Part shown: positions 15,317 to 56,609 of the stretch, in pieces
How the letters are laid out: every line of letters starts with the position of its first letter
Position numbering within the stretch: the stretch's first letter is position 1
Source of the DNA: Candidatus Binatia bacterium
GTDB lineage: Bacteria > Desulfobacterota > Binatia > UBA12015
DNA: 64,000 nt
Reading direction: 5' to 3'
NCBI GenBank assembly: GCA_019749875.1
Contig: JAIEPK010000479.1
Span: 7,184-71,183 of the forward strand
Made by a program: the position numbers and the translations under genes
Notes under the pieces: model-generated
The model's input: only the letters and a program-made list of their open reading frames with translations
The model's database searches: none
Told to the model about the DNA's origin: nothing

Positions 15317-16780
15317 CTAGACCTCGATTCCGTCGCGTCGCAGGTCCGCCGCGCCGGCGACACCGGCAACGGTTCCCTTCGGATGCTCGTACCAGCCGGG
15401 ATCCTCGTCGTAGGTGTCGAGCCGATCCCGCACCTTGAGAACGTTGACGAGGCCACCCATGGAGATGAATGCGAAGGGGCCCCGCCCCCCCATCATCGGG
15501 ATGCTGTTCGGCGGAACCGCCATGTGCATCGAATCCCCCATGCCGCTCGTTCCCATGGTCATGTACTGCGGCAGCAGCGGTGTGATCTTGCGGTCGAGGC
15601 CATCGGCGTCGACCCCGAGCATGTTCGGGAAGTCGTGCCCCATCTGATTCATGACGTGATGGGTCATGTGACAATGCAGGGCCCAGTCACCGGGGGCATC
15701 GGCGATGAACTCGATCTCGCGCGTCTGCCCCACTGCTACGAGCACGGTCGTCTCGGGCCATTGCGCCGACAACGGAATCTGCTCCCCGTCGGTCGCGGTC
15801 ACGCGGAAGTGGACGCCGTGCAGGTGCATCGGGTGATGGTCCATCGCACTCAGGTTCCCGAAGCGGATTCGTACCTTGTCGTTGGTCTTCACGATCAGCG
15901 GCCACGTTGCGGGAAAGACCTTGCCGTTCATGGTGAGCACGTTGAAGCCCTGGTCCTTGATGGGGTTCGGCCGCGAGGTACCGACGCGGACGAAGAACTC
16001 ACCGGTCAGGATCGAGAAATCGCGGTCGACGTGCTGCTCCGGGGCGGGATGCCGCGGATGGACGACCAGCATCCCGGTCAGCCCCATCGCCATCTGCGTC
16101 ATCTCGTCGTGATGCGAGTGGAACATGAACGTCCCGTGCTGGCGGAACGTCCACTCGTAGAGAAACGTCTCACCGGGAGCGATCAGCGGCTGATTGAGCC
16201 CGCCCACCCCGTCCATTCCGTTCGGGAGGTAGACGCCGTGCCAGTGCACGCTGGTCTCCGCCGGGAGACGGTTCGTCACGTAGATGCGGACGCGCTCGCC
16301 CTCGACCGCCTCGATCGTGAGGCCGGCGACCTGACCGTTGAACGCCCAGCACGTGGTCTTCAGCCCGGGTGCGAACTCGTGCTCGATCTCGCCGAGCACG
16401 AGATGGAAGACCTTCGCGCCGTCGACGATCTTGAATGGCAGTGTGGCGCCGTTCGGCACCACGACGGGTTGGTAGTCCTTGCCCGGCAAACCCGGCGGCA
16501 GCGGCGCGACGTCCAGAGGGCCGCCGCTGTAGCTCTTCTCCCACCAATCGAGGTTGGTCTGTTTGATCCCCCCACCGGCAGGCGCGGGCGGCGGGCTCGC
16601 CGCGTCGGCCGGCGCGGGCGGCGTACTCCCCGCGGCGCCGGGCGCGGACGGCGTACTTTCCGGGTCGGCGGGCGCCGCGGGCTCGGCCGCACCGGCCCGC
16701 GCCGCCATCACACCGACGAGCGAGCCTCCGACCGCCGCGGCGCCCGAGAGCAACACCGTTCGTCGCGTAGCTTTCTTCAT
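15317..16780 (-). CDS. Multicopper oxidase with Tat signal, Pro/Ala-rich linker and Met-rich segment
   Basis: RRTVLLSGAAAVG Tat signal. Copper-binding motifs HWHG, HSHHDEMTQMAMG, HPMHLHGVHF, HCHMTHHVMNQM. Met-rich MTMGTSGMGDSMHM segment. Confidence 0.85.
   Translation of the reverse strand: MKKATRRTVLLSGAAAVGGSLVGVMAARAGAAEPAAPADPESTPSAPGAAGSTPPAPADAASPPPAPAGGGIKQTNLDWWEKSYSGGPLDVAPLPPGLPGKDYQPVVVPNGATLPFKIVDGAKVFHLVLGEIEHEFAPGLKTTCWAFNGQVAGLTIEAVEGERVRIYVTNRLPAETSVHWHGVYLPNGMDGVGGLNQPLIAPGETFLYEWTFRQHGTFMFHSHHDEMTQMAMGLTGMLVVHPRHPAPEQHVDRDFSILTGEFFVRVGTSRPNPIKDQGFNVLTMNGKVFPATWPLIVKTNDKVRIRFGNLSAMDHHPMHLHGVHFRVTATDGEQIPLSAQWPETTVLVAVGQTREIEFIADAPGDWALHCHMTHHVMNQMGHDFPNMLGVDADGLDRKITPLLPQYMTMGTSGMGDSMHMAVPPNSIPMMGGRGPFAFISMGGLVNVLKVRDRLDTYDEDPGWYEHPKGTVAGVAGAADLRRDGIEV
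16565..16690 (-). repeat. Imperfect ~30-bp tandem repeats (3-4 units) inside the multicopper oxidase gene encoding a Pro/Ala-rich linker
   Basis: The units ggcgcgggcggcgggctcgccgcgtcggcc, ggcgcgggcggcgtactccccgcggcgccg and ggcgcggacggcgtactttccgggtcggcg encode PAPAD(A/S)xSxP repeats. Confidence 0.5.
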
Positions 16781-16783
16781 GAC

Positions 16784-18238
16784 TCAACGACCTCCACCTT
16801 GGATCGTGGGGAATGGGAACCGGCGCGCAGCCTCGAGCGGAGCCGTCGGCTGCACGAGCGCATCGGACGGAGGCACCCGTCCGGCGAGGATCATCGACAT
16901 GTCGGCACGCGCGAGCCAGTACTCGCGCAGGCTGTCGACGTAGCGCGCCGCCGACTCGATCTGCTGCTCCTTGGTCCGCAGCACGTCGATCGGGCTGATC
17001 TGCATCGCGTTGTATTGGAGCATCGCCTGCTGGACCACCTGCGCTCGGACCGGAAGCTGGACGTCGCGGTAGTACAGGGAGCGCTCCCCATATCCCTGGA
17101 CGCGGTCGCGCGCTGCTCTGGCCAACGCTCGAATTCGCACCGCCAGGGCGTATCGCGCATCCAAAGCGCGCTGCAGCTCTGCTTGCGCGCGCGCGGCGCG
17201 AGCCTGCCCCTGATCGAAGATCGGAATCGGGATCAGAAGAGACGGACCCGGCTCCCACTCGGGCGCGTCGCGATCTCCGCGCGCACCCACGAGGATTTCC
17301 GGAAAGAGGCCACTCGTGCGATCGAGGCCGAGCTGCTCGCCGAGAGCGACGATGCGGCTCGCGTCCGCCTTGAGATCGAGGCTGGATTCGATGGCACGAG
17401 CTTCGACGCGGTCCAGGTCCATCGGCTGCTCCGGAGGATCGGACATTCGCGAAGCCTTCAGCTTCCAGCCCGCCTCCGTTCCCCACAGACCGAGGATCGC
17501 GTTCAGCTGCTCGCGGCTCGTCCGCACGTCGACTTCCGCGAGTCGAACGTCGAGCTTCGATTCCTCTGCGAGCGCCTGCTCGCTGGAGAGGTCCAGCTGC
17601 GTGATGTTTCCTGCCTCGCGAAGGCGACGGGCGAAGTCGAACGCGGCCATGGTCGATGCGGCGATCTGCCGACGCATCTCGAGCATCTGCTCGTCGGCCT
17701 GGTGGCGGTAGAATGCCGTCTCGGCGCGCCATGCGAGGTCGAGGACCGCGCTCGCGACGCGCAGCTGCGTTTCTTCCAGAGCCGCAGCGGTGACCCGCAT
17801 GCGAAGCGGCGTGTAGAGAAAATCGATCACGTCCATGGCCACGCCGAGTGCGACGTCCACGCCGCCGCCTCCCACCGGCAACCCGACACCGGCGTCGAGG
17901 ACCGGGTTGTGCAGCAGGCTCGACTGCACGAGGTCTGCCTGGGCCACACCGAGATCCGCGTAGACGGCACGGAGATCGCGGCTGTTCATCAGCGAGATCT
18001 TGACCGCCCCCTCGGCATCGAGGCCGCCGTCGAGCAATGAGCGCACGGCATCCACCGTTGCCGGGTCGTCGCCGGCGCCGGGAGTCCATGAAACCTCCTG
18101 CGTCGTGCGCTCCTTCACGATCGACGCAACGGTGGGAAACCCGCCTTGTGGATCGACGGCAACGGCCGTGCATCCCCCGAGCGCCAAGGCGAGCAGAGCC
18201 AGGAGCCCGGCTAGAGACTCAGGTCGGCGGCGCATCAC
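16784..18238 (-). CDS. Outer membrane efflux lipoprotein, TolC/OprM/CusC family
   Basis: Lipobox LALGGC after the signal, then two repeated TolC-type coiled-coil halves. Confidence 0.8.
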   Translation of the reverse strand: MMRRRPESLAGLLALLALALGGCTAVAVDPQGGFPTVASIVKERTTQEVSWTPGAGDDPATVDAVRSLLDGGLDAEGAVKISLMNSRDLRAVYADLGVAQADLVQSSLLHNPVLDAGVGLPVGGGGVDVALGVAMDVIDFLYTPLRMRVTAAALEETQLRVASAVLDLAWRAETAFYRHQADEQMLEMRRQIAASTMAAFDFARRLREAGNITQLDLSSEQALAEESKLDVRLAEVDVRTSREQLNAILGLWGTEAGWKLKASRMSDPPEQPMDLDRVEARAIESSLDLKADASRIVALGEQLGLDRTSGLFPEILVGARGDRDAPEWEPGPSLLIPIPIFDQGQARAARAQAELQRALDARYALAVRIRALARAARDRVQGYGERSLYYRDVQLPVRAQVVQQAMLQYNAMQISPIDVLRTKEQQIESAARYVDSLREYWLARADMSMILAGRVPPSDALVQPTAPLEAARRFPFPTIQGGGR

Positions 18239-18552
18239 TGACCTCCATGCATGTGGTGCTCGTGACCCCCATGGCCTGACATCGCGTCGGCGGCGGAAGG
18301 GGTCGCGGCTTGAGTCGGCTGCGCTGACCCACGCTTGAGAATGTTTGACGATTCGAGCGATGGCGCGGCGACAGCCTCAGGGTTCGCCGGATTGGTCAGC
18401 GCAATCGGAGGCGGTTGATAAGCCGCGCATCCCGTTCCCAGGACTGAAACAGCCATCGCCATCAGAGCGAAGCTGGATCGCACACCATTCGTCGTCGACC
18501 ATCGGCCGATTCGTCGATGCGCGCGGACATTCCGCGCTGCGTTCGGGGCCAT
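18235..18552 (-). CDS. Small putative lipoprotein with C-terminal His/Met metal-binding motif (start uncertain)
   Basis: C-terminus ADAMSGHGGHEHHMHGGQ. Possible signal MAMAVSVLGTGC. The stop overlaps the downstream outer-membrane-factor ATG (ATGA). Which in-frame start is used is unclear. Confidence 0.4.
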   Translation of the reverse strand: MAPNAARNVRAHRRIGRWSTTNGVRSSFALMAMAVSVLGTGCAAYQPPPIALTNPANPEAVAAPSLESSNILKRGSAQPTQAATPSAADAMSGHGGHEHHMHGGQ

Positions 18553-18862
18553 CGTCAGCGAAATCCGCCACCATGGCATCTTGTCGCCCTCCACCGATTC
18601 AAAGATGAACATCCGCCAGGCGGAACAGCCTGACCCAATTTCAACAACGAGCTCCGCGCATGCTAGAGTGGACGACGACCCCGAGGGTCGATCGTCTCGC
18701 CCGGGCACCACGTGTACGAACGCGTGGGCGCGTCGACTGGAGGACGCACTGGCGAGCTCCGCGTTACAGGCGCAAGGCGCACCTCCGGGGACGGAAGTCT
18801 GCTTGCGCTCGACGCTCGCGCGGTCGTGGCGCGCGGTCACCTAGCCCAATGGGCGGGACCGC

Positions 18863-24152: not shown

Positions 24153-24904
24153 CGCTTCAGACCCGTGCGTCGAGCAGGTCGTCAAACCATGCGATGCTTC
24201 CGAACGCCGGCGCGAACGCGCGCACCGCGGACAGCGCGGCACGCGCCACGAGAGTCAGTACGGCGGCTGAGACACTCGGGTTGCCGTTCATATTATTGCG
24301 TTCGCGCTCATGTTTCAGCTGCAGCCGGACCTTGGACCTTGACATTTTGCTGCGGTCACTCGTCGGCGAGACGCGCGTGCAGCGCGTCGCGATCCGCCGT
24401 CGAGTACGCGGCCAGGGTCGCGACGCCGAGCTCGCCACACGCGCGGCGCACCTGGTTGCTGCGCTGCTCCACGTCCTCACCACAATCACCGCAGCTGCTG
24501 CGAACAGAGCAGCGTCCGAAACCAACCGCGGTATTTGGGTGAGCCTGTCGTGGCGTTCTCCTCCCGCGCAGAACGGGCCTCACGTCTTGAAGACGCACGC
24601 CTGGGAAGGTCGTTACACCTTCCGCGTTCGCGTGCGACCGTCGGTCGGGCGAGCGCACGAGCTCTGCCAGAACCGAAGTGCGGGAGGTGCGAGGAACGCT
24701 TGCGGAGCCGCATGGCGCCGAGCCTTGAGCTTGCGCATCGGGTCATTCCGTTCCGAGACCGGGCGAGCGCTCATCTGCGGATTCCGAGCGATCCCGAACA
24801 CACGTTCCGATTGAAGCCGAACACTGTCTGAGAGAGGCGGTCCGGTTCGCGTCGACGCGTTGACGGCGCTGGGTAGCGAAGGGCCCCATCGCACCGAGGA
24901 GGTG

Positions 24905-25968: not shown

Positions 25969-28383
<2,415 letters not shown>

Positions 28384-38738: not shown

Positions 38739-38748
38739 GCTCGTGCCT

Positions 38749-40095: not shown

Positions 40096-40109
40096 CAGCG
40101 CGCGACCAC

Positions 40110-41411
40110 TCACGGCAGGCGACCTCCTCCCGCCGCTTCTGACAGGATACCGGCTGCCTCCTCGAGGCGGGCGAGAGCCTTCTCGAAGTTTGCGCGCTCC
40201 TCGTAGTAGCGAAGCTGGTACTCGTTCAGCACGGTGAAGCTGTTGAGGACCGTCAGGAAGTCGACGTCTCCGACCTGATAGCCGGCGAGCGCCGACGTCA
40301 GCGAGCGATCGGCTTGCGGAACCACTGCGCTGCCGTACAGGCCGACGAGGCGATCCGCGCTGGTGGCTTGCGCGTGGAATTCCTTGATCTTCGCCAGAAC
40401 GTCCTGGACGGCGCTCTGACGGCCCGCTCTTGCCTCGCCTACCCCGGCCGCCGCCTCGTCGACGCCGAACGTCTGCTTGCGCCAGAAGTACAGCGGAACG
40501 CGGATGCCGGCACCGATCTCCCATTCGGGTACGAGTGCAGCCTTGTTGTAGTAGTCCGCCCGGACGACGAAATCCGGATAGTATTGACGCTCGGCGAGAT
40601 CGAGGCTCGATTCGGCTCGGTCTACATCGTACCGCGCCGCTTCGAGATACGGCGAACGCTCCCGGGCCAACCGCTCGAGGTCATCGAGCGAATACGTCAA
40701 GGACGATTTCTCGATCGGTGCAGGGCTGCCGAGAGCATCGAACGGCGGGCGATTCATCACCGCGTTCAGCTCCGCGGCACGAGCCTGTCGGGCCTGCTCC
40801 AGACTTGTCAACCGACCCAGCAACGTGGACAGCTCCACCTGCGCCCGCAGCACGTCCTGCTGAAGGCCGTTGCCGACCCGGTAGCGCGCCTCCGCAGCGT
40901 GCGTCAGCTTCTCGAGGAGCTGCTTGTTCTTTCCGATGATCTCCAGCGATTTGAACGACACAAAGTAGTCGCTGTAGGCGACGCGCAGACGGGTCAGGAC
41001 GTTCAAGGTTGTCGCGCGATACATGGCTCCCTCGCGATCGGCGACGTGAGTGGCGACCTCCTCCTTGAGCGACAGCTTGCCCGGGAAGGGGATCTCCTGC
41101 TCGATGCCAAAGCGCAGCCATGAGAAGTCGCTGCCCCCTTGCGTGAAGCGATCAAAGCTCTCGTTGTGATAGGCGGTATTGACCATCGGATCGGGCAGCG
41201 ACCCCTCCTGGGACGGACGCGCCTGTGCTGCCCGCCACCGCTGCTCGGCAGATCGTATGTCGGGATTGTTCTCTAATGTGTACGATCGGAGATCGGAAAG
41301 ATTCACCGTTCCGTCGAATCCAGGCCTGTCCTCTGCTCCGGCGACCGGCAGCGATGCCCGGACCGAAAGGACGACGACGAAAGCGATGGCCCTAATGTTG
41401 GACGGCTTCAT
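40110..41411 (-). CDS. cusC: Outer membrane efflux protein, CusC/TolC family
   Basis: Signal MKPSNIRAIAFVVVLSV, then the duplicated TolC coiled-coil/beta repeat pattern. Confidence 0.8.
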   Translation of the reverse strand: MKPSNIRAIAFVVVLSVRASLPVAGAEDRPGFDGTVNLSDLRSYTLENNPDIRSAEQRWRAAQARPSQEGSLPDPMVNTAYHNESFDRFTQGGSDFSWLRFGIEQEIPFPGKLSLKEEVATHVADREGAMYRATTLNVLTRLRVAYSDYFVSFKSLEIIGKNKQLLEKLTHAAEARYRVGNGLQQDVLRAQVELSTLLGRLTSLEQARQARAAELNAVMNRPPFDALGSPAPIEKSSLTYSLDDLERLARERSPYLEAARYDVDRAESSLDLAERQYYPDFVVRADYYNKAALVPEWEIGAGIRVPLYFWRKQTFGVDEAAAGVGEARAGRQSAVQDVLAKIKEFHAQATSADRLVGLYGSAVVPQADRSLTSALAGYQVGDVDFLTVLNSFTVLNEYQLRYYEERANFEKALARLEEAAGILSEAAGGGRLP

Positions 41412-42927
41412 CACGCAACCCCGGGTCCGGGCCTTGCTCGCTCCCCCGCATGGCGGGCAGCAGCCGCTCCCTTCGAAGGACGCAGAAGCGCGCCGTGATC
41501 TTCGGGGGGTCGTAATTGCGTTGAACGGCGCAGAGGTCTTCGCCTCCCCCGTAACGAACATCTCCGCCGACGAGAGCGAGCAGGTTCAGGTCTCGCGCCA
41601 GCTGGTAGCCGTCGAAGTGCGTCCACAGTCGCTCGCGCCCCCACCCTCGGGAGGGCGCGAGCCTGCAGTAGACATCGAACGGGATGCACGCGAGCGTGAA
41701 CTCGAAAGGATCCAGCCCGAGGCCTTCCACGATCCGCGCACCATGAACGCGCGTCGCGTCCTCGATCACGAGCCGCGGCAAGGCACGTCGCTGGCTGAGA
41801 CCGAGTTGGGTCAGGAGTGTCGTACGCGCGTCGGGGTCGTCCTCAGGAAAGGTCTCCACAAGAACGGTTTCCTCGTCGAAGCACGGCAGATACCGGCTTC
41901 CCGCCGACGTCATGAAAGGATGAAGCAGAAGCAGGTCGAGATTCTCCCGCAGCAGCGAGCTGACTCCGGGCGGTCCCGCATGCCCGCACGTCCGACAGGT
42001 GCCGACCCGTCGGCTGCCCTCGCTCAATGGTCGCTCCGGGAAGGTCGGACAATCGCCACAGGCACACGTCAAGTAAGCGAGAATCAGCGGTGCGGCTGCA
42101 ACCGTCTCGGGCGCAAGCCCGAGGTCGTGTCCAATGCGCACGACCGGCTCCGGCAGCGCGTTCGCCAGCTTCCGGCTGCCTGATTTCACCGGGTGGAGAC
42201 GGCCCAGCGAACCTGCCCGCGGCGTGCGGGCCAGCAATTGCGTCAGCCGGCGCACCTCGCCGAAATTCGACTCGTCGACCGCCTGGCTGAGTCTCGTCAC
42301 GAGTTCCTGAGGGTCGACCAGGAGCGATTCGTCGCCCGCTGTCACCCTGAGCCGGTCGAAATACTGCGCTCGCGCGATGTACAACGCTCTCCATTCGGCA
42401 TCACGGTCGGCGAGCACGCGCAAGCTTTCGCACAGGGTCGCGCGCTCCCGCTCCAACGCCACGCCCGGGTGGGAAGTGAGCCCGTTGAGGGCCAACGTGA
42501 CAGGACTCACGGCGAAATTGCGTGGGCCGTAGATCGAACCCGCCAGCTCCGCGATGGACCCGAGACGCGATACTCTTGCCAAGCTCGACTCTGCGGCTTC
42601 CGCCAAGGATTGCGCATCCTCCCACTTGGTTTTCTGAATCGCGTCTCGAAGCGCAGTCCGGAGCTCGGGCAACGCTGCGCGCTCACGCTCGAGACCTTCG
42701 AATTCCCTCCGAGAGAGGAGCGGTGCGAGGAACCTCTCCGCTCTGCACAGGTAGAGGTCGGCAAAGGCGGGATCGGCTTCGCCGAGCGCTCGAAGTGCAA
42801 CGATGACCTCTATGGACGAACTACTCGCTGGCGATTCCGGCCCGTCAGACCTCGCCACTCCGATCTTCATGATCACATCATCCAACGTTGAACGTGCCAG
42901 AAGCCTTCTTCTGTACCGCGATGCCAC
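41392..42927 (-). CDS. Hypothetical protein with CxxC...CxxC zinc-ribbon-like cluster, first gene of the cus operon
   Basis: 511 aa soluble protein with CACGDCPTFPERPLSEGSRRVGTCRTCGH. Overlaps the cusC start by 20 nt. GTG start at 42927; ATG alternative at 42870. No family recognised. Confidence 0.45.
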   Translation of the reverse strand: MASRYRRRLLARSTLDDVIMKIGVARSDGPESPASSSSIEVIVALRALGEADPAFADLYLCRAERFLAPLLSRREFEGLERERAALPELRTALRDAIQKTKWEDAQSLAEAAESSLARVSRLGSIAELAGSIYGPRNFAVSPVTLALNGLTSHPGVALERERATLCESLRVLADRDAEWRALYIARAQYFDRLRVTAGDESLLVDPQELVTRLSQAVDESNFGEVRRLTQLLARTPRAGSLGRLHPVKSGSRKLANALPEPVVRIGHDLGLAPETVAAAPLILAYLTCACGDCPTFPERPLSEGSRRVGTCRTCGHAGPPGVSSLLRENLDLLLLHPFMTSAGSRYLPCFDEETVLVETFPEDDPDARTTLLTQLGLSQRRALPRLVIEDATRVHGARIVEGLGLDPFEFTLACIPFDVYCRLAPSRGWGRERLWTHFDGYQLARDLNLLALVGGDVRYGGGEDLCAVQRNYDPPKITARFCVLRRERLLPAMRGSEQGPDPGLRDEAVQH

Positions 42928-44622: not shown

Positions 44623-46341
44623 TCACCCTCCGTTCGTTTCCGATCCCGATCCGCTGCTCGACGGCTCCGAGACATCCCGCGATTGGGATGGCGTGGCTCG
44701 CTGCGCGGCGAGATAACGTGCGATATCTTCGATCTGCGCATGCGTGAGTGGCCCATCGGGTGCCAGGAAGCCGGGCATTTGCGAGTTACCGATGAGGCTC
44801 TTCGGGTCCTCGATGTAGCGATGGATGAACGAACGTGATCGCGCGTCTCCGATGCCGCTCAGGTCGGGGCCCTTGTCGCCGCCACGTCCGGCAATGCGAT
44901 GGCATTCCGAGCAGTAGCGACGGGTCATGCGAGGCGCCTGATCGCCGTAGGGGCCGCCGCCCCGGAGCTCGTCGACGTACGCGATCAAGGCATCGATCTC
45001 AGCGTCGCCAAGTCCCAGCGGCGGCATCAATGAGCCAGGAACGACGGCCTGTGGATTCCGGAAGTGAATCCGCATCCACGCACCGTCATGCGCTGGCATC
45101 GAGAGAGCCAGGTCGGGACCAACGAGACCACCTTGTCCGCGTACGCTGTGACAATGTGCGCAGTGGAGCTCGCGAGCGAGCCGCATGCCGTCATCGACAA
45201 GACGCGGGCGCGGGACGTAGGGACTGACCAGTGGCGACCGAGCGCCGGCAACCGTCAACCAGACGATCGCGACCGCCGTCAGGACGACAGCTGCGGTCGC
45301 GAGCGGTCGGTCGAGGGGATGGCGGCGCAGTCGGGAATCGAGAAGGGGAAGCGCAAGCAGAGCCAGGATCCCGAGGGACGGCAGCACGACCGCCGCGACC
45401 GATTCCAAGGATCCTGGAAAGTACTTGAGAAGCTGGAACAAGAACAGGAAGTACCACTCCGGGCGCGGGTTGAAGCTCGTCTCCGTCGGATCGGCGATGT
45501 CGCCGACTTCCGGCGGCGAGTGCCACGCCAGCAGCAGCAGGACCACGAAGACGACGAGGATGGCGATCGCGTCCTTGGCGAGACTGAACGGGTAGAACGG
45601 GTCGCCGGCCTCCTTGGCATCCTGGTAGCGTTCTCGAACCATCCGCCGGGCCGTCACGGGATCGTCGGGAAGCTGCTCCCCCCGGATGGGCGGCGCAGAG
45701 ATGCCCTGGCGAACGACCACAAACAGGTGGAACCCGACGAGCAGCAGCAGCACGGCCGGAAGCAGCAGCACGTGGAACGCGTAGAAGCGGGTCAGCGTCT
45801 GGGCACCGAGGTCGTCCCCGCCTCGCAGCACCTGGGCGATGGCGGGTCCCACGAACGGAGCTTGCTCTGCGATCTTCGTTCCGACCTGTGTCGCCCAGTA
45901 CGCCTTTTCGTTCCACGGCAGAAGGTAGCCCGTGAAACCGAGGCCCAGCACGACCAGCAGCAGCAGAACGCCCGAGATCCACGTCGCCTCACGCGGATAC
46001 TTGTACGCGCCCGTCAAGTATGTCCGCAGCATGTGAACGGACACCACGAGGACCATCGCACTGGCGCCCCACACGTGCAGCCCGCGCACCATCGCTCCCA
46101 TGGGCGCCTGCTCCATGATGAATCGCACGGAATCGAACGCGTGGTCCGGGGTTGGCGCATAGCTCATCGCGAGGAATGCGCCTGTCGCGGCCTGTACGAG
46201 GAACAGGAACAGACTGATGCTGCCGAGCGTATAGATCCAGCCCACTCCCCGCGGGATCTTGCGCGCGAACAGCGCCCGACCCACAGCTCGTGTTCCGATC
46301 CGCTCGTCGAACCAATCGGCGAGCGCGCGGCCCGTGAACAT
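44623..46341 (-). CDS. Cytochrome b (bc-complex type) fused to C-terminal diheme cytochrome c domain
   Basis: N-terminal cytochrome b core with multiple TM helices and conserved His. C-terminal CAHCH and CSECH heme-binding motifs. Confidence 0.8.
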   Translation of the reverse strand: MFTGRALADWFDERIGTRAVGRALFARKIPRGVGWIYTLGSISLFLFLVQAATGAFLAMSYAPTPDHAFDSVRFIMEQAPMGAMVRGLHVWGASAMVLVVSVHMLRTYLTGAYKYPREATWISGVLLLLVVLGLGFTGYLLPWNEKAYWATQVGTKIAEQAPFVGPAIAQVLRGGDDLGAQTLTRFYAFHVLLLPAVLLLLVGFHLFVVVRQGISAPPIRGEQLPDDPVTARRMVRERYQDAKEAGDPFYPFSLAKDAIAILVVFVVLLLLAWHSPPEVGDIADPTETSFNPRPEWYFLFLFQLLKYFPGSLESVAAVVLPSLGILALLALPLLDSRLRRHPLDRPLATAAVVLTAVAIVWLTVAGARSPLVSPYVPRPRLVDDGMRLARELHCAHCHSVRGQGGLVGPDLALSMPAHDGAWMRIHFRNPQAVVPGSLMPPLGLGDAEIDALIAYVDELRGGGPYGDQAPRMTRRYCSECHRIAGRGGDKGPDLSGIGDARSRSFIHRYIEDPKSLIGNSQMPGFLAPDGPLTHAQIEDIARYLAAQRATPSQSRDVSEPSSSGSGSETNGG

Positions 46342-46847
46342 CAGCTCCTCCGCTGCGCCAAGGGCACGACGAAGAGCTCGCCACCCTCGATCGTAGCCGG
46401 ATAGACGTCCAGCGGTCGCGGAGGAGGGCCTCCGATCACACGGCCGTCAATGTCGTACAACCCGTCGTGGCAGGGACAAAGAAAACGGTTCTCCTTCACC
46501 TGCCAATGATAGGCGCAGCCGAGATGTGTACAGCGCGGGTCGAAGACCAGAACATCGTCGGTGCTGCGCTTGACGACCCAGGCAGCGTGCCGACCTTCTT
46601 CGGTTACCCAGCCGTCACGCTGCCGCAGGACGAACTCGACCTTCTGAGGCTGGTTGGCTTGAAAGTCGCTCACGGCCCCGAGCCGTACGCGCAACGTCTC
46701 GCGCCGCCGGAGGAGCGGCCCGAGGAAATAGCCAACCAGCGGCGCCGCGAGGCCAAGACCAACCAGGGTGATGATCGACCAGAAGCAGCGCGCGAGCCAT
46801 TCTCGCCTGTCGACCGAGTCGCCCGCCCCCTGGATCACTTCGGACAT
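46341..46847 (-). CDS. Rieske 2Fe-2S protein
   Basis: CTHLGC and CPCHDG Rieske boxes with an N-terminal TM anchor. Confidence 0.85.
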   Translation of the reverse strand: MSEVIQGAGDSVDRREWLARCFWSIITLVGLGLAAPLVGYFLGPLLRRRETLRVRLGAVSDFQANQPQKVEFVLRQRDGWVTEEGRHAAWVVKRSTDDVLVFDPRCTHLGCAYHWQVKENRFLCPCHDGLYDIDGRVIGGPPPRPLDVYPATIEGGELFVVPLAQRRS

Positions 46848-47200
46848 AGACCACGAATGAATGCGAGCGTGTCGCGAATCTCGCTGTCGTCGAGCGCATC
46901 GGCGTATGGCGGCATATCCTTCGACAGCCCCCCCGCCGGGCCGCCGTCCTTGATCACGCGAAGTAGCTGCTCGTCGGTGAATGACGACATGCGCGCGCAG
47001 TCGGCAAGGTCCTTTGGCTTCGTTGCGAGCGTCGCGGCTTCTTTCCCATCGCCCTTACCTGCGGCGCCGTGGCACTTCGCGCACAGTTCGGCATACGTGG
47101 ATTTCCCGCGCGCGACATCTGGCTCGGCTGCGCGTGCCGTCAGCGCCGCCATGCCGATTCCCACCGCACACGCTGAAATCAAGAGAGCGTATCGCCTCAT
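46835..47200 (-). CDS. Periplasmic monoheme cytochrome c
   Basis: Signal peptide plus CAKCHG heme motif; distal Met likely in DMPPYA. Confidence 0.8.
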   Translation of the reverse strand: MRRYALLISACAVGIGMAALTARAAEPDVARGKSTYAELCAKCHGAAGKGDGKEAATLATKPKDLADCARMSSFTDEQLLRVIKDGGPAGGLSKDMPPYADALDDSEIRDTLAFIRGLCPK

Positions 47201-47351: not shown

Positions 47352-47762
47352 TCACATGTCGCCGCTTGGCTTGCTGTCGCCTTGGCTGCCACCCTTCGCG
47401 CCGTCAGAGGGCTGGTGCATGTGGTCCATGTGACCTTGCATGTCATGCCCCATGCTTCCGGGAGTCGGCTTCGCGGCTGCTCCGTGAGTGTGCGCGCCGT
47501 GATCCGGCGCGGGGTTGGCCGCGGTGCCGCCGCTACCCATCCCATCCGCTCCCTTCTGGTCCTGCTTGCTGCCCATCCCGCCCGAACCCATCTCATCCAT
47601 GTCCGCGAGCAGGACGCCGGTCGTGCCAGCCGCAGGCTGAGCGGAGGTTGATCCCGGCAGCGCGCCGCCGACGGACGCCACAGAAGACGTGCCGCTCGCA
47701 ATGACGGCCCCAGCGCAAAGCAAGAACCCCCGGAACAAGAAACGTATTCCGAACCCTGTCAT
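47352..47762 (-). CDS. Secreted His/Met-rich low-complexity protein (putative periplasmic metal-binding protein)
   Basis: Signal MTGFGIRFLFRGFLLCAGAVIA. Repeats of GMGS, HxH and MxxM: MDEMGSGGMGSKQDQKGADGMGSGG...HGAHTHG...MGHDMQGHMDHMH. Confidence 0.5.
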   Translation of the reverse strand: MTGFGIRFLFRGFLLCAGAVIASGTSSVASVGGALPGSTSAQPAAGTTGVLLADMDEMGSGGMGSKQDQKGADGMGSGGTAANPAPDHGAHTHGAAAKPTPGSMGHDMQGHMDHMHQPSDGAKGGSQGDSKPSGDM

Positions 47763-47831
47763 GACACTCCCTTTCACCGCGCGATCGCGCAGTTATCCCT
47801 CGGTCGAAAAGACGCACGACCCTTCAACGCG

Positions 47832-48500
47832 TTACAGCTCTCGCCTATCGGGACAGGATGCCGACTGGGCTCTCCTGCAAGAACCCGCACTTTGGCACCT
47901 GCAAGGAGCACAGTTGTCGGCGGCGGATCCGCCGCACACGTCAACGAGACGGGACCGCAGACTGCCGCGCGCCCGATGCAGCCGCACACGAGCGTTCGTT
48001 GTCGAGATCCCCGCCTCCCGCGCTGCCTGGTCAATCGTCGACCCGTCGAGGTCTATCCGGCGAATGATCGCGGCGTAAGCGGGACTGAGCGTCAAGAATG
48101 CCCGACCAACACACCCGCATGACTCCGGGGTGGGGTCGGCTTCATGCCTCACCGCTTGAGCTTCATGCGCGAATCGTCCCAGTACCCGCTGATAGGCATC
48201 GCTGCGACGCCTGAAGTCGATCGAGGCGTTCTTCAGCACGCGGAGGAACCACCATGGAAACCGCTCCGGGGACCGCAGCTCGCCTGCCCGTACGAGTGCA
48301 CTCAGACATGCATTCTGCAGCACGTCCTCCGCTGCTTTTCGATCGCCCACCAGCCGCGTGGCCATCCCAAGCCAGCGGGCCTTGTCGTCGTAGACGGCAG
48401 TCAGTAGTGCTGCCGTCTCCTCCGAACGACGGATCGGGGCCGGTGCCGATGCCGGCCGACTTGACGTCGTCATCGTCTCTCGCCCCATCGCTCCGGACAA
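47832..48500 (-). CDS. ECF (sigma-70 family) sigma factor with C-terminal Cys-rich extension (CorE-like)
   Basis: Sigma region 2 (FPWWFLRVLKNASIDFRRR) and region 4 (IDLDGSTIDQAAREAGISTTNARVRLHRARGSLR). C-terminus DVCGGSAADNCAPCRCQSAGSCRRAQSASC has 8 Cys in 30 aa. The start may be one of several in-frame Met codons. Confidence 0.75.
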   Translation of the reverse strand: MSGAMGRETMTTSSRPASAPAPIRRSEETAALLTAVYDDKARWLGMATRLVGDRKAAEDVLQNACLSALVRAGELRSPERFPWWFLRVLKNASIDFRRRSDAYQRVLGRFAHEAQAVRHEADPTPESCGCVGRAFLTLSPAYAAIIRRIDLDGSTIDQAAREAGISTTNARVRLHRARGSLRSRLVDVCGGSAADNCAPCRCQSAGSCRRAQSASCPDRREL

Positions 48501-48635
48501 GTCCGGAAATATGCGCCTAGGGATCTCGCGGCTGCTGCTGCCCGTGTTGTTCGGGCAGGCGGCAATAGCCGCGGGCGAAGCGCTGCTCAGCCTCGCGACC
48601 GAGGAGCAGCGCGTTCCGCGCGACGGGTCAAGAGA

Positions 48636-49097
48636 TCAAATCAGAAGCGTTGCGAAACGGAGGTAACGCGGCGGGGCGTGGGCGGACGCAACCAGATCCG
48701 CGCGCCTGTCGAGATCGGCGACCCGATGCCACGACTCTCGGTCGTACACGGTCGCTACCACGATGCTCACAGGCGCAGTGGATGGGGGAGTCGAGTCGTG
48801 GGCAAATCTATCCTTGCCGGTGAGGTCGCAGCACGTGCGATGCTCCGAATGGGGCGTGGTTGCCGAGTCGTGCTGTTCTCCGTGATGCTGGTGACCAACG
48901 TGCACGTCTGCGCGCATAGCCTGGTGGGCGACGGACCGGGACGTACGCTGAGCTGCGTCCGTTATCGGACAGTTCGTGGCGGCATCCGCGAGACAACGCG
49001 TCGATGAGTACGGCAGGACGACAGACACGAACAGCGCGACGAGAACACGCAACCACTGCCTTGCTGGGCCCAGCAAGATTCGCCGCAAGAAAATCAT
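48636..49097 (-). CDS. Secreted hypothetical protein with HxxxxCC motif (paralog of 9088..9531)
   Basis: Signal MIFLRRILLGPARQWLRVLVALFVSVV. Motif HQHHGEQHDSATTPHSEHRTCCDL. C-terminal PRYLRFATLLI mirrors the paralog. Confidence 0.5.
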   Translation of the reverse strand: MIFLRRILLGPARQWLRVLVALFVSVVLPYSSTRCLADAATNCPITDAAQRTSRSVAHQAMRADVHVGHQHHGEQHDSATTPHSEHRTCCDLTGKDRFAHDSTPPSTAPVSIVVATVYDRESWHRVADLDRRADLVASAHAPPRYLRFATLLI

Positions 49098-49617
49098 CAG
49101 TTGTGCTACATCTACTCCGATGGAATCGAGAGATCAAGGCGTCGAGGAACGACCGCATCACCCAGACGCGCAGCTGTTGGTGCCGAGCGTCCGCCTGGTG
49201 GTGTTTACGGCAGGCGCCACGGCGGACAACCCCAAATCCGGTTTGGTGTCGCCCGAGGGGGCGGCCCTGCCCAGCGGAATGCGAAATATGCGAGTGACAG
49301 CGAAGTCGTCCCGGCACCAATGCCGGCCAAGCAGGTGGTTCGGAAGTCGGGGAAGTGATTTCGGCGAGACCGAGCGGTGACTGCCGCTGGCTCACCCGGT
49401 TGCAGCAAGGCGAGGAAGGCATTCCCAAGGTCGAGGCCGACTATCTCGAGATCATTCGCGCTACTCCGTAGCGGTCGCGCTCGCAGTTCGGCGTGTTCGA
49501 CGTGCTGATTGCGCTCTCCTCTTCGACGACGCCGTGGTCGTTGGCTCCGGCAGCGTGACGACCCTGGGGCTTCGGCCGTAGCAGCGTGCCCACCGTGAGG
49601 TAGCGCCGCACGACGGC

Positions 49618-50150
49618 TCACTCGTCAAGCTGCTCGGCCAGTACCGCTCCCACGAGACGGATGATCGCATCGCGGTTCGGGAAGATCCCGACGACGTCGG
49701 TCCGCCGCTTCGGCTGGCGGTTGAGCCGCTCCGCGGGTTGTTCGACCAGATCTGTCGCCGGTGCTCCTTCGGCAAGCTTGCGAAGCCCAGCAGATCCGCC
49801 TCTCCGTCGCGCAGCAGCTCGGCAGCCGTAGGCCAGCGCGCTTCGAGCTGCTCGACGACACGCGCGTGCTGAGCCCGTGTGAGCTCCGCATCCGGTTCGG
49901 CGAAGACCATCCGCACCAGCGTCGCGACGAGCCCCTGTGCGCTCTTCGTCAGCAGGTTGCGCATGAAGTGCGTCCGACAGCGCTGCCACGCAGCCCCAGG
50001 CAGCGTCGCCGCGATCGCATCTCGGAGCCCGGCGTGCGCGTCCGAGATCGCGAGCTGCACGCCGCGCAGTGCGTATTCCGGCCGAGTCGATCGCCAATTC
50101 CGGTCGAAGCCGATCAGCGATGGTGTCGACCGGGCAGTTCGTCCGAGGAC
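49618..50150 (-). pseudogene. IS256-family (Mutator-type) transposase, C-terminal fragment, frameshifted and truncated by the IS481 insertion
   Basis: Frame A gives [28 protein letters not shown]...IWSNNP. Frame C then gives [37 protein letters not shown]. Together these match the IS256 Tnp C-terminus. The upstream part is missing at the IS481 boundary. Confidence 0.6.
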
Positions 50151-51542
50151 ATGGGTGACAGCTGTCCGGTCCACATAGGTGACAGCTTGCCCGATCCTGC
50201 TTCTTCCGTGTTCCTAATTCACCTCTTGCTTGATGGCGCTGCGAGTCCGATGCGGCGACAGAAGCGTTCTCTCACTTCACTCGCGCCCAGCACGTGACCG
50301 GTGGGCGAATCAGGCCGAGTTTGGAGCGTTCGTCTAGGAAGCCGAGCCGGACGGCTGCGAAGAAGACGTGGTGCATTTGGTTGGCCGTCTCGATGCCGAT
50401 CCATTCCCCTTCCAAGGCATGCCCGATCGTCACCATCGCGCTCTTCCAGCGGATGCGTCCGCTGGCCGCGACCTTTCGCATCTCGAAGTGCTCGGGGTAA
50501 TGCACGTCGGGCAGTCGGCGTGGGTACGATCGCGGGGATGGGCGGTAGCGCGACGACGGCGTCCCGTTTTGGAGAGCTTCGTGTGGCCGCTCCTCGTTGT
50601 ACTCTCGCTGGAACGCGTCGAATCGGAGCTGCTGGCGGCGCAGTGTGGCCGCAGGCGGACGAACGGTCTCTTGCTTGAGCGTGCGATGCATCCGCTCATG
50701 CCGTCCGTTCTGCTCGGGATGGCCGGGCTCGATGCGTTCGTGCCGAATTCCGAGCTTCACCCACCAGATCGAGAGCTGCGATAGTCCTCCCGCTCCACGG
50801 CTCGCGAATGGCGTACCGTTGTCCGTGCGGATGCGTTCGGGCAGACCGTACTCCCGAAACACATCCTCGAAAACCGGGCGGACGCGGATCGTCTTCGTCG
50901 ATCGAAGTGCCGTGCAGCGAAGCAGCGTGCGGCTGAAAGCATCGGTCACTGTGAGCGGATAGCATCGCCGCGCGTCGCCTGTCTTGAAGTCGCCCTTGAA
51001 GTCGGCACACCAGAGGCGATAGGGTTCGTCCGCCTCTGCAAAAGGATCCGTGTACGGAGGCGTTCGGCGTCGTGCCTGGCGGGCTCGTGAGCGAAGAGAG
51101 CGCTCACCGTGCTCGCGACTGGCAATTCGAGCCGTGGTTGCTTGACGGCGAGCCAGGCGAGAATCTCGCGCCCCCCCCAGTGCGGGTGCGAACGCCGCGC
51201 CTGGATCAACGCCTCGATGACAGCCGCATCGACCCTGCTCGGGTGCGTGATTGGCGCTCGCGAGCGATCTACGAGCCCGCTCGGCCCCTCTTCGTTGTAG
51301 CGAGCGACCCATTTGTAGGCCGTCTTGCGGCTCACACCGAACTGGCGAGCAAGCTCGCTCATCGGCTCCTCGCCCTTCATGTACGCACCGATCAGCACAA
51401 TTCGTTCGTCCACCCGTGACCGCTCCTTCCAGACCATCGATCGTTCCTCCCCGGAACGACCGAACCCGTCTGCCTTCAGCGTGTCACCTATGTGGGTCGG
51501 ACCGTTGTCGCCGATGTCGACCGGGCAGACTGTCACCCATGA
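50151..51542 (-). mobile_element. IS481-family insertion sequence (~1.39 kb) with imperfect terminal inverted repeats; transposase frameshifted
   Basis: Terminal repeats catgggtgacagctgtccggtccacataggtgaca (left) and tgtcacctatgtgggtcggacc...cagactgtcacccatg (right). The transposase N-terminus (HTH, ELARQFGVSRKTAYKWVARY) is in ORF 50946-51536. The DDE integrase core (LWCADFKGDF...TDNGTPFAS...HPEQNGRHERMHRTLK) is in ORF 50272-51312 in another frame. Confidence 0.7.
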
Positions 51543-52528
51543 TGCCGGGCGTTACCGGAATCAGTGATCGGCTCGCGCCGGAATCGGCGATCGGCTTGGG
51601 CCGGAACACGCCGACGCGAGTCCGCTGCCCGAGCGTGCCATCGTGTCCCTGACGGTCGTGAAGCCCATGTCGTCGCGATCGATCCCGTGGGCAGAGTTCA
51701 AGGGCTTTGACGCATGCGACACGATCGCTGCCACCAGCGTCGAGAACCTGATAATCACGACGGACTAACGGGCGCCTCGCTCTAGTCGACTCCTGCAACA
51801 TCGAGAATGGCTTCGCGCTCCGTCGACATCTTGACCTGCACGCGCTGCGGATCGCGTCAGACCCAGTCCGCGGCGGTTGCTCATGCCGCCGGCACGTCCT
51901 GGACTCGGCAGCTGACGCGGTCGGTCGTGCTCGGCGGTAGCCTCTGGCGCGGCGAGGGAGGAGGCACGTGGTCATCGACCGAGGAGACGGCGAGCGTATC
52001 CGAGACGCGGAGCGGCATCGCCGACATGGTAGAGCTGCCCGCACCGCCGGCGCGGCAAGACGTGCGGCGGGACGTCATCAAGCGGCTGCGCGCACTGCGA
52101 GCATCAAACGAGTGGCAGCGTGATCCGTCCTGCTTCCGCCAGCGGTTTGGCTTCGTGCTCATCGACCACACGAAGGCCTCCGCTCGAGCCGACGCTGAAT
52201 TCCAGCGTCGGCTCCGAGTCTAGAACTCCTTTGCACCAACTGGCGCAGGCTGATGCTGTGCTTGCAGTGCGGCAACATCTACGCCCCCTACCTGTACGGC
52301 GAGCTCGTCGCCGAAGGACGGCGACTCTACGAAGCGGGCGATCTTCGCACCGGGTCGCAACACCTCGACGAAACGCTTGCCGACTACGAGGAGCGCGTGC
52401 AGAACTTCGAGCCGCGCCTCTACCTTGCGACCTCGACCTCGTTCCTGCGCAAGACGCACGAACGAACGAGGTCGAGGAGCCCCACCGATTCGACGTCGAG
52501 CTCTCGACCCGAACGTGACAGAGCATCC

Positions 52529-52753
52529 TCAACTGCGTTTCATCTCACGCTCCAGCAGTTCGCGGATGAGCGCGCTCGCGTCAGGCCTTCCCCCTTCGGC
52601 GCCGACCAAGTCGAGCGCGCGCCGCCGGAGCCAGCTGTGCTGGTCGGGCGTCAGTAGGACCGTCACGGCGCGCAACCCCGATCGGCGCGACAAGCGCGCT
52701 TCCTGTCCCGAGACCTTACCCGTTGCCACTCCCCTCTTCCTCACCGTTGCCAT
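52529..52753 (-). CDS. Ribbon-helix-helix (CopG/ParG-like) DNA-binding protein
   Basis: 74 aa; VTVLLTPDQHSWLRRRALDLVGAEGG...ASALIRELLEREMK is typical of RHH fold proteins. Immediately downstream of the integrase. Confidence 0.5.
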   Translation of the reverse strand: MATVRKRGVATGKVSGQEARLSRRSGLRAVTVLLTPDQHSWLRRRALDLVGAEGGRPDASALIRELLEREMKRS

Positions 52754-52776
52754 GGTCTTCCTGCGCCTCGTCGCCG

Positions 52777-53817
52777 TTAGCTCGCGGCTCCACACCTCCT
52801 ATACGGCACGACCAACATCGCTGCAGCCTTCCGTTTGGCGGTCTCTCCTCGATGGTCGTAGCGCGCGGTCGTCGTGAGGCTCGCGTGTCCGGCGAGGCGC
52901 TGTACGAGGGCGAGGTCGACCCCCGCCTCGAGCAGGTCCGTGATGAAGGTTCGCCGCAGGTCATGCGGGGAAAAGCGCCGCCCGCCTGCAGCCACGCGTC
53001 GGCGATCGAGCGCCGCATAGATCGCCTGATCGGTCATCCCACGGAGCTCGAGGCGCCCTCCCTTCCGGACGCGGACGAACAGCCGGCCGGGGCCCATACC
53101 CCGCACGACGAGCCAGTCATCGAGCGCTGCCGCGGTGCCTCCGAGCGCGTAGACGACCCGCTCCTTGCGCCCTTTGCCGACTCGCACCCGGAGCTCGCCC
53201 GTGACGCGCGCGTAGTCGGATACATCGAGTCCGGCAGCCTCCGATCGCCGAAGGCCGCAGCCCACGAGGACCGCCAAGATCGCAGCGTCTCGGGCTCCTG
53301 CGGGCGTCCTGTCGTTGCCGCAGCATGCGAACAGCGCCTCGACCTCCTCGCGCGCGAGTCGCCGGCCGCGTGGCAGTTGGCTCCCTGTGACGAGCGCGAT
53401 GTCAGCCGCCTGCTGGTACTCCTCGGCTGTCATCTGACCGAGCCGCCATGCTTCGCGCAGCACTCCGCGGAGAGCCGCGATGAAGCGGTTCGCGGTTGCG
53501 CGGGCGCGCCGCTGCTCGATCAGCAGCGCGCGCACTCCGCTCGTTTGCCGGTACCGGAGCGAAGCCCACGGGATCATGTCCACGTCGTGGCTGCCACCCG
53601 AGAGCATGCGCGCGATCTCGGCAAGCGTCGCCCCCATTACACGCCGCGATGCGGGCGAGGTGAGCTGATGGAGGTAGACGCGGGCTGCGTTGGGGGTGGC
53701 CGGCGGATCCGGACAACCCGCGAGCGGTGAGCGATCGAGGCTCAGCGCCTGGGGCGACGTGGGACCTTGCTTCTTATCACGTTCGCAAAGTCCCACTTCC
53801 AAGGATTGTGCGCCCAC
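52777..53817 (-). CDS. Tyrosine-type site-specific recombinase/integrase
   Basis: Catalytic R..HDLRRTF..LGHASLTTTARYDH with Tyr in TARY. N-terminal SAM-like domain. Probable GTG start. Confidence 0.85.
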   Translation of the reverse strand: MGAQSLEVGLCERDKKQGPTSPQALSLDRSPLAGCPDPPATPNAARVYLHQLTSPASRRVMGATLAEIARMLSGGSHDVDMIPWASLRYRQTSGVRALLIEQRRARATANRFIAALRGVLREAWRLGQMTAEEYQQAADIALVTGSQLPRGRRLAREEVEALFACCGNDRTPAGARDAAILAVLVGCGLRRSEAAGLDVSDYARVTGELRVRVGKGRKERVVYALGGTAAALDDWLVVRGMGPGRLFVRVRKGGRLELRGMTDQAIYAALDRRRVAAGGRRFSPHDLRRTFITDLLEAGVDLALVQRLAGHASLTTTARYDHRGETAKRKAAAMLVVPYRRCGAAS

Positions 53818-56606: not shown

Positions 56607-56609
56607 GGA

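Follow-up and report, generated by a model that had tools for sequence, protein, structure and literature searches.

Extracytoplasmic function (ECF) sigma factors of the CorE type are defined in reviews by two features: a CxC motif within the linker that joins sigma regions 2 and 4 (PMC4937300, PMC6851896, PMC8999054), and a C-terminal Cys-rich domain of 21-50 residues that follows straight after region 4. The CxC motif is confined to the former ECF44 part of group ECF238, most members of which do not have it (PMC8999054); SigZ, another ECF238 member, has two C-terminal Cys only (10.1101/2019.12.11.873521). Only two CorE-like sigma factors have been studied so far, both from one organism. In CorE of Myxococcus xanthus, the Cys residues are C120-x-C122 in the linker and C181-x2-C184-x4-C189-x2-C192-x-C194 plus C206 in the tail; in CorE2, they are C108-x-C110 and C169 ... 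C173-C174-x3-C178-x2-C181-x-C183 (PMC3107203, PMC9023288). The linker motif is essential in both proteins (PMC4937300). Within the tail of CorE, activation depends mainly on C189, a residue that correlates with synteny to copper genes, C184 is required for the Cu(I)-dependent switch-off (the C184A mutant is constitutive and has lost the rapid shut-off), and a single-residue difference, A185 in CorE versus C174 in CorE2, sets specificity for copper or for Cd/Zn. Here we describe an ECF sigma factor gene in a stretch of 64,000 nucleotides from a Candidatus Binatia bacterium (assembly GCA_019749875.1, contig JAIEPK010000479.1, positions 7,184 to 71,183; the whole of this stretch is referred to below as the window). 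A first-pass annotation, made from the letters of the window, had described the gene as CorE-like, with an eight-Cys C-terminal extension and copper genes as neighbours.

The protein belongs to the already known family of CorE-like sigma factors. Our reading, which we hold with a probability of about three in four, is that this CorE-like sigma factor (ECF44-type, now within ECF238) carries its own metal sensor, works without an anti-sigma factor and drives copper genes. The family assignment and the copper-island setting are supported by the comparisons below, and on these two points the first-pass annotation was essentially right. What is new is (i) the exact Cys map, with a missing equivalent of CorE C184; (ii) a cassette of three genes to which the sigma gene belongs; and (iii) a candidate promoter motif.

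Coordinates of all features are collected in Table 1. The open reading frame (ORF) of the sigma gene has 222 codons, and its likely start is ATG 48473, which gives a protein of 213 residues, because the 99%-identical relative P0001 begins there and the upstream ATG is out of frame in the related locus L005. Two numberings are therefore used, that of the 222-residue ORF and that of the 213-residue protein counted from M10, so that C119 of the protein is C128 of the ORF. Sigma regions 2 and 4 are intact, as had been noted, with both Pfam models above their cutoffs, and the Pfam scan of the protein found no domain besides these two. Among NCBIfam models, the generic ECF model TIGR02937 is passed, and the most similar one is SigZ (TIGR02959), itself assigned to ECF238 (10.1101/2019.12.11.873521), with 62.8 bits, which falls short of the equivalog cutoff. 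No second sigma gene was found in the window.

The ORF contains nine Cys, at residues 65, 128, 130, 189, 197, 200, 202, 208 and 216, or C56, C119, C121, C180, C188, C191, C193, C199 and C207 when counted from M10. The Cys pair reported between regions 2 and 4 is present (SCGCVGRAF, ORF residues 127-135), as is the Cys-rich end of the protein, where the string VCGGSAADNCAPCRCQSAGSCRRAQSASC occupies residues 188-216. The extension after region 4 is 34 residues long and has six Cys; eight are counted when the linker pair is included, and the description of an eight-Cys extension has to be corrected in this respect. The core of the tail, C180-x2-S183-x4-C188-x2-C191-x-C193 (that is, C-x7-C-x2-C-x-C), is the CorE pattern with one substitution, and the second linker Cys is separated from the first tail Cys by 59 residues in the window protein, CorE and CorE2 alike. 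At the positions of CorE C184, C189 and A185, the window protein has Ser, Cys and Ala, respectively. Of the four positions described as Cys throughout 21 family members (CorE C181, C184, C192 and C194), three are Cys here, and the position that sets specificity (CorE A185, CorE2 C174) is Ala.

Relatives were collected in three ways. A word-indexed protein search returned seven relatives only; an exhaustive profile search returned 450 cluster representatives at E<=1e-30; and a scan of GTDB species genomes, made with the family alignment after dropping P0007, returned 80 loci. The latter span Nitrospira, Myxococcota, Acidobacteriota, Verrucomicrobiota, Gemmatimonadota and Alphaproteobacteria, largely in agreement with the phyla of a 2011 survey of sigma factors with Cys-rich domains (alpha and delta Proteobacteria, Acidobacteria, Verrucomicrobia and Nitrospira), and no relative above 41% identity was found among the GTDB species representatives. 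Conservation was counted in an alignment of 235 sequences. Both linker Cys and C180 are kept in all 235 sequences, C191 in 229, C193 in 228 and C188 in 197; C56, C199 and C207 are not conserved. The C184-equivalent position (C180+3), which is Ser183 in the window protein, is Cys in 213/235 relatives, so that this residue is not truly invariant in the sample: about 9% of the relatives are without it, including the window's own clade and the top-scoring matches, which have the pattern CGGxPxxxCxPCxC in common (P0009, P0010, P0017 and P0048; also Minicystis rosea, L072).

Invariant Cys would also be expected of a structural site. If these residues held a structural Zn or Fe-S centre and had no part in sensing, activity would be set by the amount of sigma factor alone, and the conserved TTGATCTCT element and the hairpin that precede the cassette genes, both described below, could then serve as a regulator site. 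We consider this very improbable, as CorE and CorE2 are inactive when overproduced without metal, and single Cys mutants change their metal responsiveness. A second possibility is that family and mode of action are as proposed, with an effector other than copper: Zn or Cd (as for CorE2), Ag, or thiol oxidation under redox stress. CorE responds weakly to Cd and Zn, and one residue swaps the specificities of CorE and CorE2; the missing C184-equivalent alters the set of ligands; and Cus/Czc-type systems, built from resistance-nodulation-division (RND) and outer-membrane efflux proteins (OEP), export several metals. On the other hand, the specificity position is Ala, as in the copper-responsive CorE, C188 corresponds to the CorE residue that correlates with copper-gene synteny, and the predicted targets are a multicopper oxidase (MCO) operon and a Met/His-rich periplasmic protein. 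We therefore regard an effector other than copper as unlikely, and return to our reading of a copper-type sensor.

A canonical ECF sigma factor would be paired with an anti-sigma factor, and the discovery of a cognate gene downstream would have spoken against a CorE-like mode. The downstream gene begins with a signal peptide and has no N-terminal cytoplasmic anti-sigma domain; it encodes a secreted His/Met-rich protein. As described by the first-pass annotation, the sigma gene lies between this gene and a gene for a second His-rich protein, here called His-CC, and no anti-sigma gene adjoins it: both flanking proteins have signal sequences, leave no room for a cytoplasmic anti-sigma domain, and have no such domain by Pfam. 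An anti-sigma gene was not found in the window, nor in L001-L007 or L088-L091, counted as 10 related loci with called genes; one located elsewhere in the genome is conceivable. The probable start of the His/Met-rich gene is ATG 47762, behind a GGGAG Shine-Dalgarno sequence; the product has about 140 residues, its body is rich in Gly, Met, His and Asp, and it has no Pfam match at E<=0.01 and no NCBIfam match. The His-CC protein, with the invariant motifs LPY.STRC, TCC(D/E)LTGK and, at the C-terminus, PP.YLRF..LLI (PPxYLRFxxLLI), likewise has no match in Pfam or NCBIfam. Its homologs form a family of 22 members without Pfam match, all unnamed or annotated as hypothetical.

The order His-CC, sigma, His/Met-rich recurs in four lineages with sigma identities of 49-77%: in the window, L005 (sigma 77% identical), L006/L007 (49%) and L091 (49%), with His/Met-rich orthologs downstream of the sigma gene in each of the latter; in L005, as in the window, the cassette is followed by cytochrome c and Rieske genes. 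The cassette partners are absent from the 80 distant CorE-like loci. His-CC homologs also occur without a sigma gene, namely before cusCBA (L093/94), behind cytochrome c, Rieske and cytochrome b genes (L095/96), and as a paralog with 31% identity in the window; therefore, judging by its distribution, His-CC appears to be an accessory gene of copper islands and not a dedicated anti-sigma factor. A role for His-CC as anti-sigma factor was rejected because of its signal sequence, the missing domain and the homologs without sigma gene. A broader version of this idea, in which either flanking protein serves as an unconventional anti-sigma factor or obligate co-sensor that relays the periplasmic copper status, draws on the common travel of the three genes in four lineages and on the lipoprotein beside corE2, which influences CorE2-dependent induction although it is no anti-sigma factor. 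Both flanking proteins start with a signal peptide and have neither a cytoplasmic segment nor an anti-sigma domain, the His-CC homologs noted above stand without a sigma gene, neither partner is found in the distant loci, and the His/Met-rich gene looks like a target because it stands behind a sigma-type promoter. These observations make such a relay improbable, and we favour a sigma factor that senses metal by itself.

Two conserved DNA elements accompany the cassette. In four loci (window, L005, L006 and L091), the His-CC start is preceded at a distance of about 27-42 nt by an element of the form (T/A)TGATyTCy. In the window, and one base off in L005, a second copy stands at the His-CC stop codon. 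This element might act as a -35-like box or as a regulator site through which the cassette is expressed independently of metal. It is not claimed as a promoter, since it is not enriched: exact matches in the window are confined to two sites, and matches with one mismatch number 9 versus 9.3 expected. Just 5' of the sigma start, the inverted repeat CCGGA-(4-7 nt)-TCCGG, with AGCGATG behind it, is kept in three loci (window 48490-48515, minus strand; L005 ~880-900; L006 ~872-895) although the proteins are only 49-77% identical; this repeat may be a hairpin or operator that acts on translation or transcription of the sigma gene. A promoter of the GGAAC/TGACCC type in the spacer between His-CC and sigma was rejected, as its spacing differs between loci, and a scan of the cassette for sigma70 promoters and terminators gave nothing useful.

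An ECF-type -35/-10 motif near the copper genes, which the first-pass annotation had proposed to search for, was found before the His/Met-rich gene and before an OEP/MCO operon. Alignment of the spacers between the sigma and His/Met-rich genes of the window, L005 and L006 revealed CTGTAACG ... GCGTC at the sigma stop codon, from which we define a bipartite element, -35 GTAAC, 16 nt, -10 CGTC, with the extended form TGTAACG-N12-GTGCGTC. Site 1 ends 48 nt ahead of the His/Met-rich start codon. It is conserved in L005, L006/7, L088 and L091; it stands in the short gap behind the sigma gene and overlaps the last sigma codons in three of the four cassette lineages. The motif has an equivalent position in the distant alphaproteobacterial loci L055 and L060 (31-32% identity), where the TAA stop codon again lies inside GTAAC. 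Site 2 precedes a putative target operon for a lipoprotein candidate with a His-rich end (MSGHGGHEHHMHGGQ), an OEP and an MCO. This OEP/MCO pair is of the same kind as MXAN_3424-cuoB, which CorE activates in M. xanthus (PMC3107203).

The frequencies of the motif were compared to random expectation. In the window, GTAAC-N14-19-CGTC has 5 matches versus 1.5 expected; the extended form has 3 exact matches, sites 1 to 3, all on the coding strand, and 5 matches with up to 2 mismatches versus 0.54 expected, a number reached in 0/100 shuffles. With one mismatch, GTAAC-N16-CGTC is not enriched in the window (9 matches versus 12.3 expected), and only exact and extended matches were used. Across loci, GTAAC-N16-CGTC within -10..+100 nt of the sigma stop codon and on the sigma strand occurs in 7/86 non-redundant loci (window, L005, L006, L091, L029, L055 and L060) versus 0.14 expected (Poisson 2e-10). 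Elsewhere, the motif stands ahead of a heavy-metal ATPase gene in L029, of a metallothionein-like, Cys-rich ORF in L084, of the sigma gene itself in L086 and, in L023, of a gene for a small protein ending in ...RPLLI. The L084 ORF, in a Polyangiaceae metagenome-assembled genome (~4640-4810, plus strand), encodes 56 residues with 17 Cys (MSDTNPCQCKSCGPTCGC...), and lies between the motif and a CorE-like sigma gene. A variant, GTAAC-N17-CGTC, precedes a gene for a 157-residue protein in two alphaproteobacterial loci (L028 3104-3650 and L083 3132-3680, plus strand); only the C-terminal half of this protein is sigma4-like and its N-terminal half is Cys-rich, which is reminiscent of MXAN_0974, the third M. 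xanthus protein with a Cys-rich domain, with similarity to sigma region 4.2 only. CorE promoters have AAC in the -35 element and a conserved G in the -10 element, 16-18 nt from AAC (PMC3107203); this description appears compatible with GTAAC-N16-CGTC. No copy was found upstream of the sigma or His-CC genes in the window, which, as negative evidence only, is consistent with the reported lack of full autoregulation of sigma genes in the family. We regard TGTAACG-N12-GTGCGTC as a candidate promoter with good support, by which a local regulon is defined, and GTAAC-N16-CGTC may be general for the CorE-like family.

Selection on the sigma gene was assessed by the ratio of nonsynonymous to synonymous substitution rates (dN/dS). 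For residues 20-193, dN/dS is 0.14-0.36 in comparisons to L005, L006 and L091, which points to purifying selection on the core; residues 194-213 give 0.59 (versus L005) and 1.16 (versus L006). In P0002, which is 77% identical, the last two Cys are missing and a one-base indel shifts the frame of the last codons. The two distal Cys, C199 and C207, would thus be dispensable, judging from these comparisons, and the DNA of the distal tail is conserved for another reason, namely its overlap with promoter site 1. The conservation of the Cys-rich tail in orthologs, on which the first-pass annotation had made its proposal depend, therefore holds for the core and fails for the last two Cys. In a metagenome protein from ENA with 88% identity (P0003), a frameshift right after region 4 replaces the Cys-rich domain by alternative-frame sequence; it is either an artefact of assembly or an allele with a natural loss of function. 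This frameshift, and the insertion sequence (IS) fragments and integrase directly upstream of the cassette, would fit a gene that is merely carried along on a mobile island, is decaying and no longer has a function. We consider such decay extremely unlikely: the ORF is intact, its core is under purifying selection, promoter and cassette are conserved across lineages, and a second assembly contains this sequence at 99.4% identity.

Under our reading of an autonomous sensor, we propose the following course of events. The thiolates of C119/C121 and of C180, C188, C191 and C193 would bind a cytoplasmic metal ion, most likely copper, and binding would turn an inactive sigma factor into a form that directs RNA polymerase to its promoters, with no anti-sigma factor involved. 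The promoter copy at the sigma stop codon would drive the secreted His/Met-rich protein, the composition of which is like that of a periplasmic copper sponge, and the transcript may extend into the cytochrome c/Rieske/cytochrome b genes that follow; the second copy would drive the operon for the His-rich lipoprotein, OEP and MCO. No such promoter lies ahead of the sigma gene, whose expression is therefore probably not dependent on its own activity, as has been reported for corE and corE2. With Ser at the C184 position and Ala at the A185 position, the response is predicted, by analogy to CorE mutants, to be of copper type and sustained, not a transient pulse. Direct metal sensing and copper specificity we infer from homology and context; the same applies to the targets that are actually transcribed and to the kinetic effect of Ser183. 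More tentatively, and with less than even odds in our view, the window clade (this sigma factor, P0002, P0004 and the L091 sigma factor) might be a distinct CorE-like subtype that has lost the off-switch Cys and is locked into a three-gene module, a portable and self-contained copper alarm with sustained response, in which periplasmic partners buffer or relay copper and TGTAAC-N16-CGTC is the general promoter of the family.

Several observations weigh against this reading of the locus. Ser stands in place of C184, one of the four Cys termed 'absolutely conserved' in the 2011 CorE paper, and the mapping of residues onto CorE and CorE2 rests on published numbering and spacing, not on their full sequences. 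Metal specificity is not readable from sequence, CorE and CorE2 differing by a single residue. In the AlphaFold2 (AF2) model, built from a 7-sequence alignment, the predicted local distance difference test score (pLDDT) is ~90 in regions 2 and 4 and below 50 in the linker (residues 106-117) and the tail (184-213), so that the composite metal site is without structural support; the predicted template modelling score (pTM) is 0.41, and the model would speak neither for nor against a metal-dependent fold. No CorE-like structure was found in PDB, where the top match is M. tuberculosis SigL. As to the promoter, no sensible target gene follows site 3, the motif is missing at cusCBA and at the P-type ATPase gene in the window, and the seven stop-adjacent loci are not fully independent because four of them share one clade. 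In addition, a GTAAC-type -35 element is used by ECF16 sigma factors, whose promoters read tGTAACc-N16-CGAA (PMC3420878), and a sigma factor elsewhere in the genome could read these sites.

The window is a large metal-resistance island, with nearly all genes on the minus strand. The copper genes reported around the sigma gene are present and comprise those for a CusCBA-like system, for a P-type ATPase that carries YHS and HMBD domains, and for three multicopper oxidases; MgtC and a porin-like protein are also encoded. At the edge of the cassette, the transposase fragment is truncated, and its junction is shared with GCA_034286135.1 (L088), which is 99.4% identical to the window over 2.4 kb (47651-50016); the arrangement of the island is common to the two assemblies.

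Table 1. Coordinates of features in the window (position 1 is the first letter of the stretch)
Feature	Position	Strand	Remark
ECF sigma factor gene	47832..48500	-	ORF of 222 aa from TTG 48500; stop codon TAA at 47832-47834
Sigma region 2	48198..48371	-	Pfam PF04542 Sigma70_r2, ORF residues 44-101, 36.8 bits, cutoff 24
Sigma region 4.2	47964..48113	-	Pfam PF08281 Sigma70_r4_2, ORF residues 130-179, 34.5 bits, cutoff 25.7
Linker CxC motif (C128-G-C130 of ORF; C119/C121 from M10)	48111..48119	-	invariant in 235/235 relatives
Core of Cys-rich domain, C-G-G-S-A-A-D-N-C-A-P-C-R-C	47895..47936	-	equivalents of CorE C181, [S for C184], C189, C192, C194
Distal tail with two non-conserved Cys	47835..47894	-	last codons overlap promoter of next gene
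His/Met/Gly-rich secreted protein gene	47352..47777	-	downstream of sigma; signal peptide, MDEMGSGGMG and HDMQGHMDHMH motifs
His-CC protein gene	48636..49097	-	upstream of sigma; signal or anchor sequence, His-rich
His-CC paralog, 31% identity	9088..9531	-	no sigma gene adjoining; then NTP-transferase, methyltransferase, multicopper oxidase
TTGATCTCT element	49129-49137 and 48631-48639	-	also L005 266-274, L006 237-245, L091 about 600
Candidate promoter site 1, TGTAACGCGTTGAAGGGTCGTGCGTC	47811..47836	-	-35 GTAAC holds sigma TAA stop; -10 CGTC
Candidate promoter site 2, TGTAACGCGGAGCTCGCCAGTGCGTC	18743..18768	-	exact match to extended motif
Candidate promoter site 3, TGTAACGACCTTCCCAGGCGTGCGTC	24592..24617	-	FlhB-like ORF ~350 nt downstream; IS66 fragment upstream
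Putative target operon of site 2	15317..18552	-	lipoprotein candidate, outer-membrane efflux protein, multicopper oxidase
His-rich lipoprotein candidate	~18235-18552		in operon of site 2
Outer-membrane efflux protein	16784-18238		in operon of site 2
Multicopper oxidases (three)	5323-6747, 15317-16780, 20884-22311		second one in operon of site 2
P-type ATPase with YHS and HMBD domains	25969-28383
CusA-, CusB-, CusC-like genes	35592-41561
Cytochrome c / Rieske / cytochrome b-c cluster	44623-47200	-
Mutator-transposase fragment, IS481-type element, tyrosine integrase	49461-53817	-	directly upstream of cassette
IS66 fragment	24860-25618	+	adjoins FlhB-like gene
NTP-transferases	7901-9058, 10265-11116, 13852-14649
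GT2	12848-13855
PMT/ArnT-like protein	11008-12840

Other gene groups of the island recur in related loci. The cluster of cytochrome c, Rieske and cytochrome b/di-haem c fusion genes is also found in L005 (2240-3099) and L095/L096 (2326-4867), where it adjoins the cassette or His-CC homologs, together with a porin-like gene and MgtC; the cluster has the look of an electron-transfer module dedicated to the copper island. YHS domains are fused or adjacent to sugar-metabolism enzymes in the window (33067-34959, minus strand), L089, L090, L091, L095/96 and L001. Examples include a glycogen-phosphorylase-like protein with an N-terminal YHS domain, an NTP-transferase followed by a YHS protein, patatin-YHS and TreT/GT1-YHS, and such pairings recur in the copper islands of the lineage. 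A lone gene of the FlhB/YscU family lies at 23082-24242 (minus strand; Pfam Bac_export_2, E 1.6e-117), with no other flagellar or type III secretion genes nearby. Beyond the integrase, genes for a subtilase (S8) and an AAA ATPase stand side by side (54087-57818, minus strand); these have no relation to the copper genes and might belong to the cargo of a different mobile element.

The locus offers a natural variant at the residue that controls the switch-off of CorE, and a candidate promoter that recurs beside family members in several phyla. If the promoter is confirmed, regulons could be predicted for hundreds of metal sensors that consist of a single protein and are so far uncharacterised, and biosensors would gain compact metal-responsive parts; if it is truly the general promoter of the family, such prediction would extend across Nitrospira, Myxococcota, Acidobacteriota, Verrucomicrobiota and Alphaproteobacteria. 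As for annotation of the window, part of this large and mobile copper-resistance island gains a candidate regulator.

Among known systems, the promoters of ECF16 (SigF/EcfF-type) sigma factors resemble the window motif in the -35 GTAAC and the 16-nt spacer, and differ in the -10 element (CGAA versus CGTC); in addition, ECF16 sigma factors pair with membrane anti-sigma factors of the NrsF type. OrbS, the iron-starvation sigma factor of Burkholderia cenocepacia, also has an on-board, Cys-based metal sensor at its C-terminus, but belongs to another ECF group, has the motif C-x2-C-x3-C-x5-C and is inhibited by Fe(II). The His/Met-rich protein we take to be comparable to periplasmic metal-binding proteins of the PcoE/SilE type, in view of its size of ~140 residues, signal peptide, Met/His motifs, copper-island setting and predicted induction by metal; the resemblance is one of composition only, as neither Pfam nor NCBIfam gives a match. 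SigZ of Bacillus subtilis and other ECF238 members share with the window sigma factor a short Cys-containing C-terminal extension and the lack of an anti-sigma factor; the window sigma factor falls into the CxC-bearing, ECF44-type minority of the group. CorE2 (MXAN_5263) is similar in the CxC motif, the Cys-rich domain, the spacing between them and the lack of an anti-sigma factor, and it has a neighbouring exported protein that influences signalling, as the window sigma factor also adjoins exported proteins. It differs in the CC doublet (C173-C174) for Cd/Zn specificity, where the window protein has S-A, and in its targets, a cation diffusion facilitator (CDF) pump and a glyoxal-oxidase-like protein. 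The closest counterpart is CorE (MXAN_3426), the founding member of the former ECF44. The window sigma factor differs from CorE in the Ser for C184 and in other distal Cys positions, and the two small secreted His-rich proteins on its flanks have no parallel in reports on corE. Common to both are an architecture of regions 2 and 4 only, the linker CxC, equivalents of C181, C189, C192 and C194, Ala at the A185 position, no anti-sigma factor, no obvious autoregulation as far as the missing upstream motif can indicate, the copper-island setting, an OEP and MCO target (predicted for the window sigma factor), and promoters with AAC in the -35 element and a G/C-rich -10 element ~16-17 nt away.

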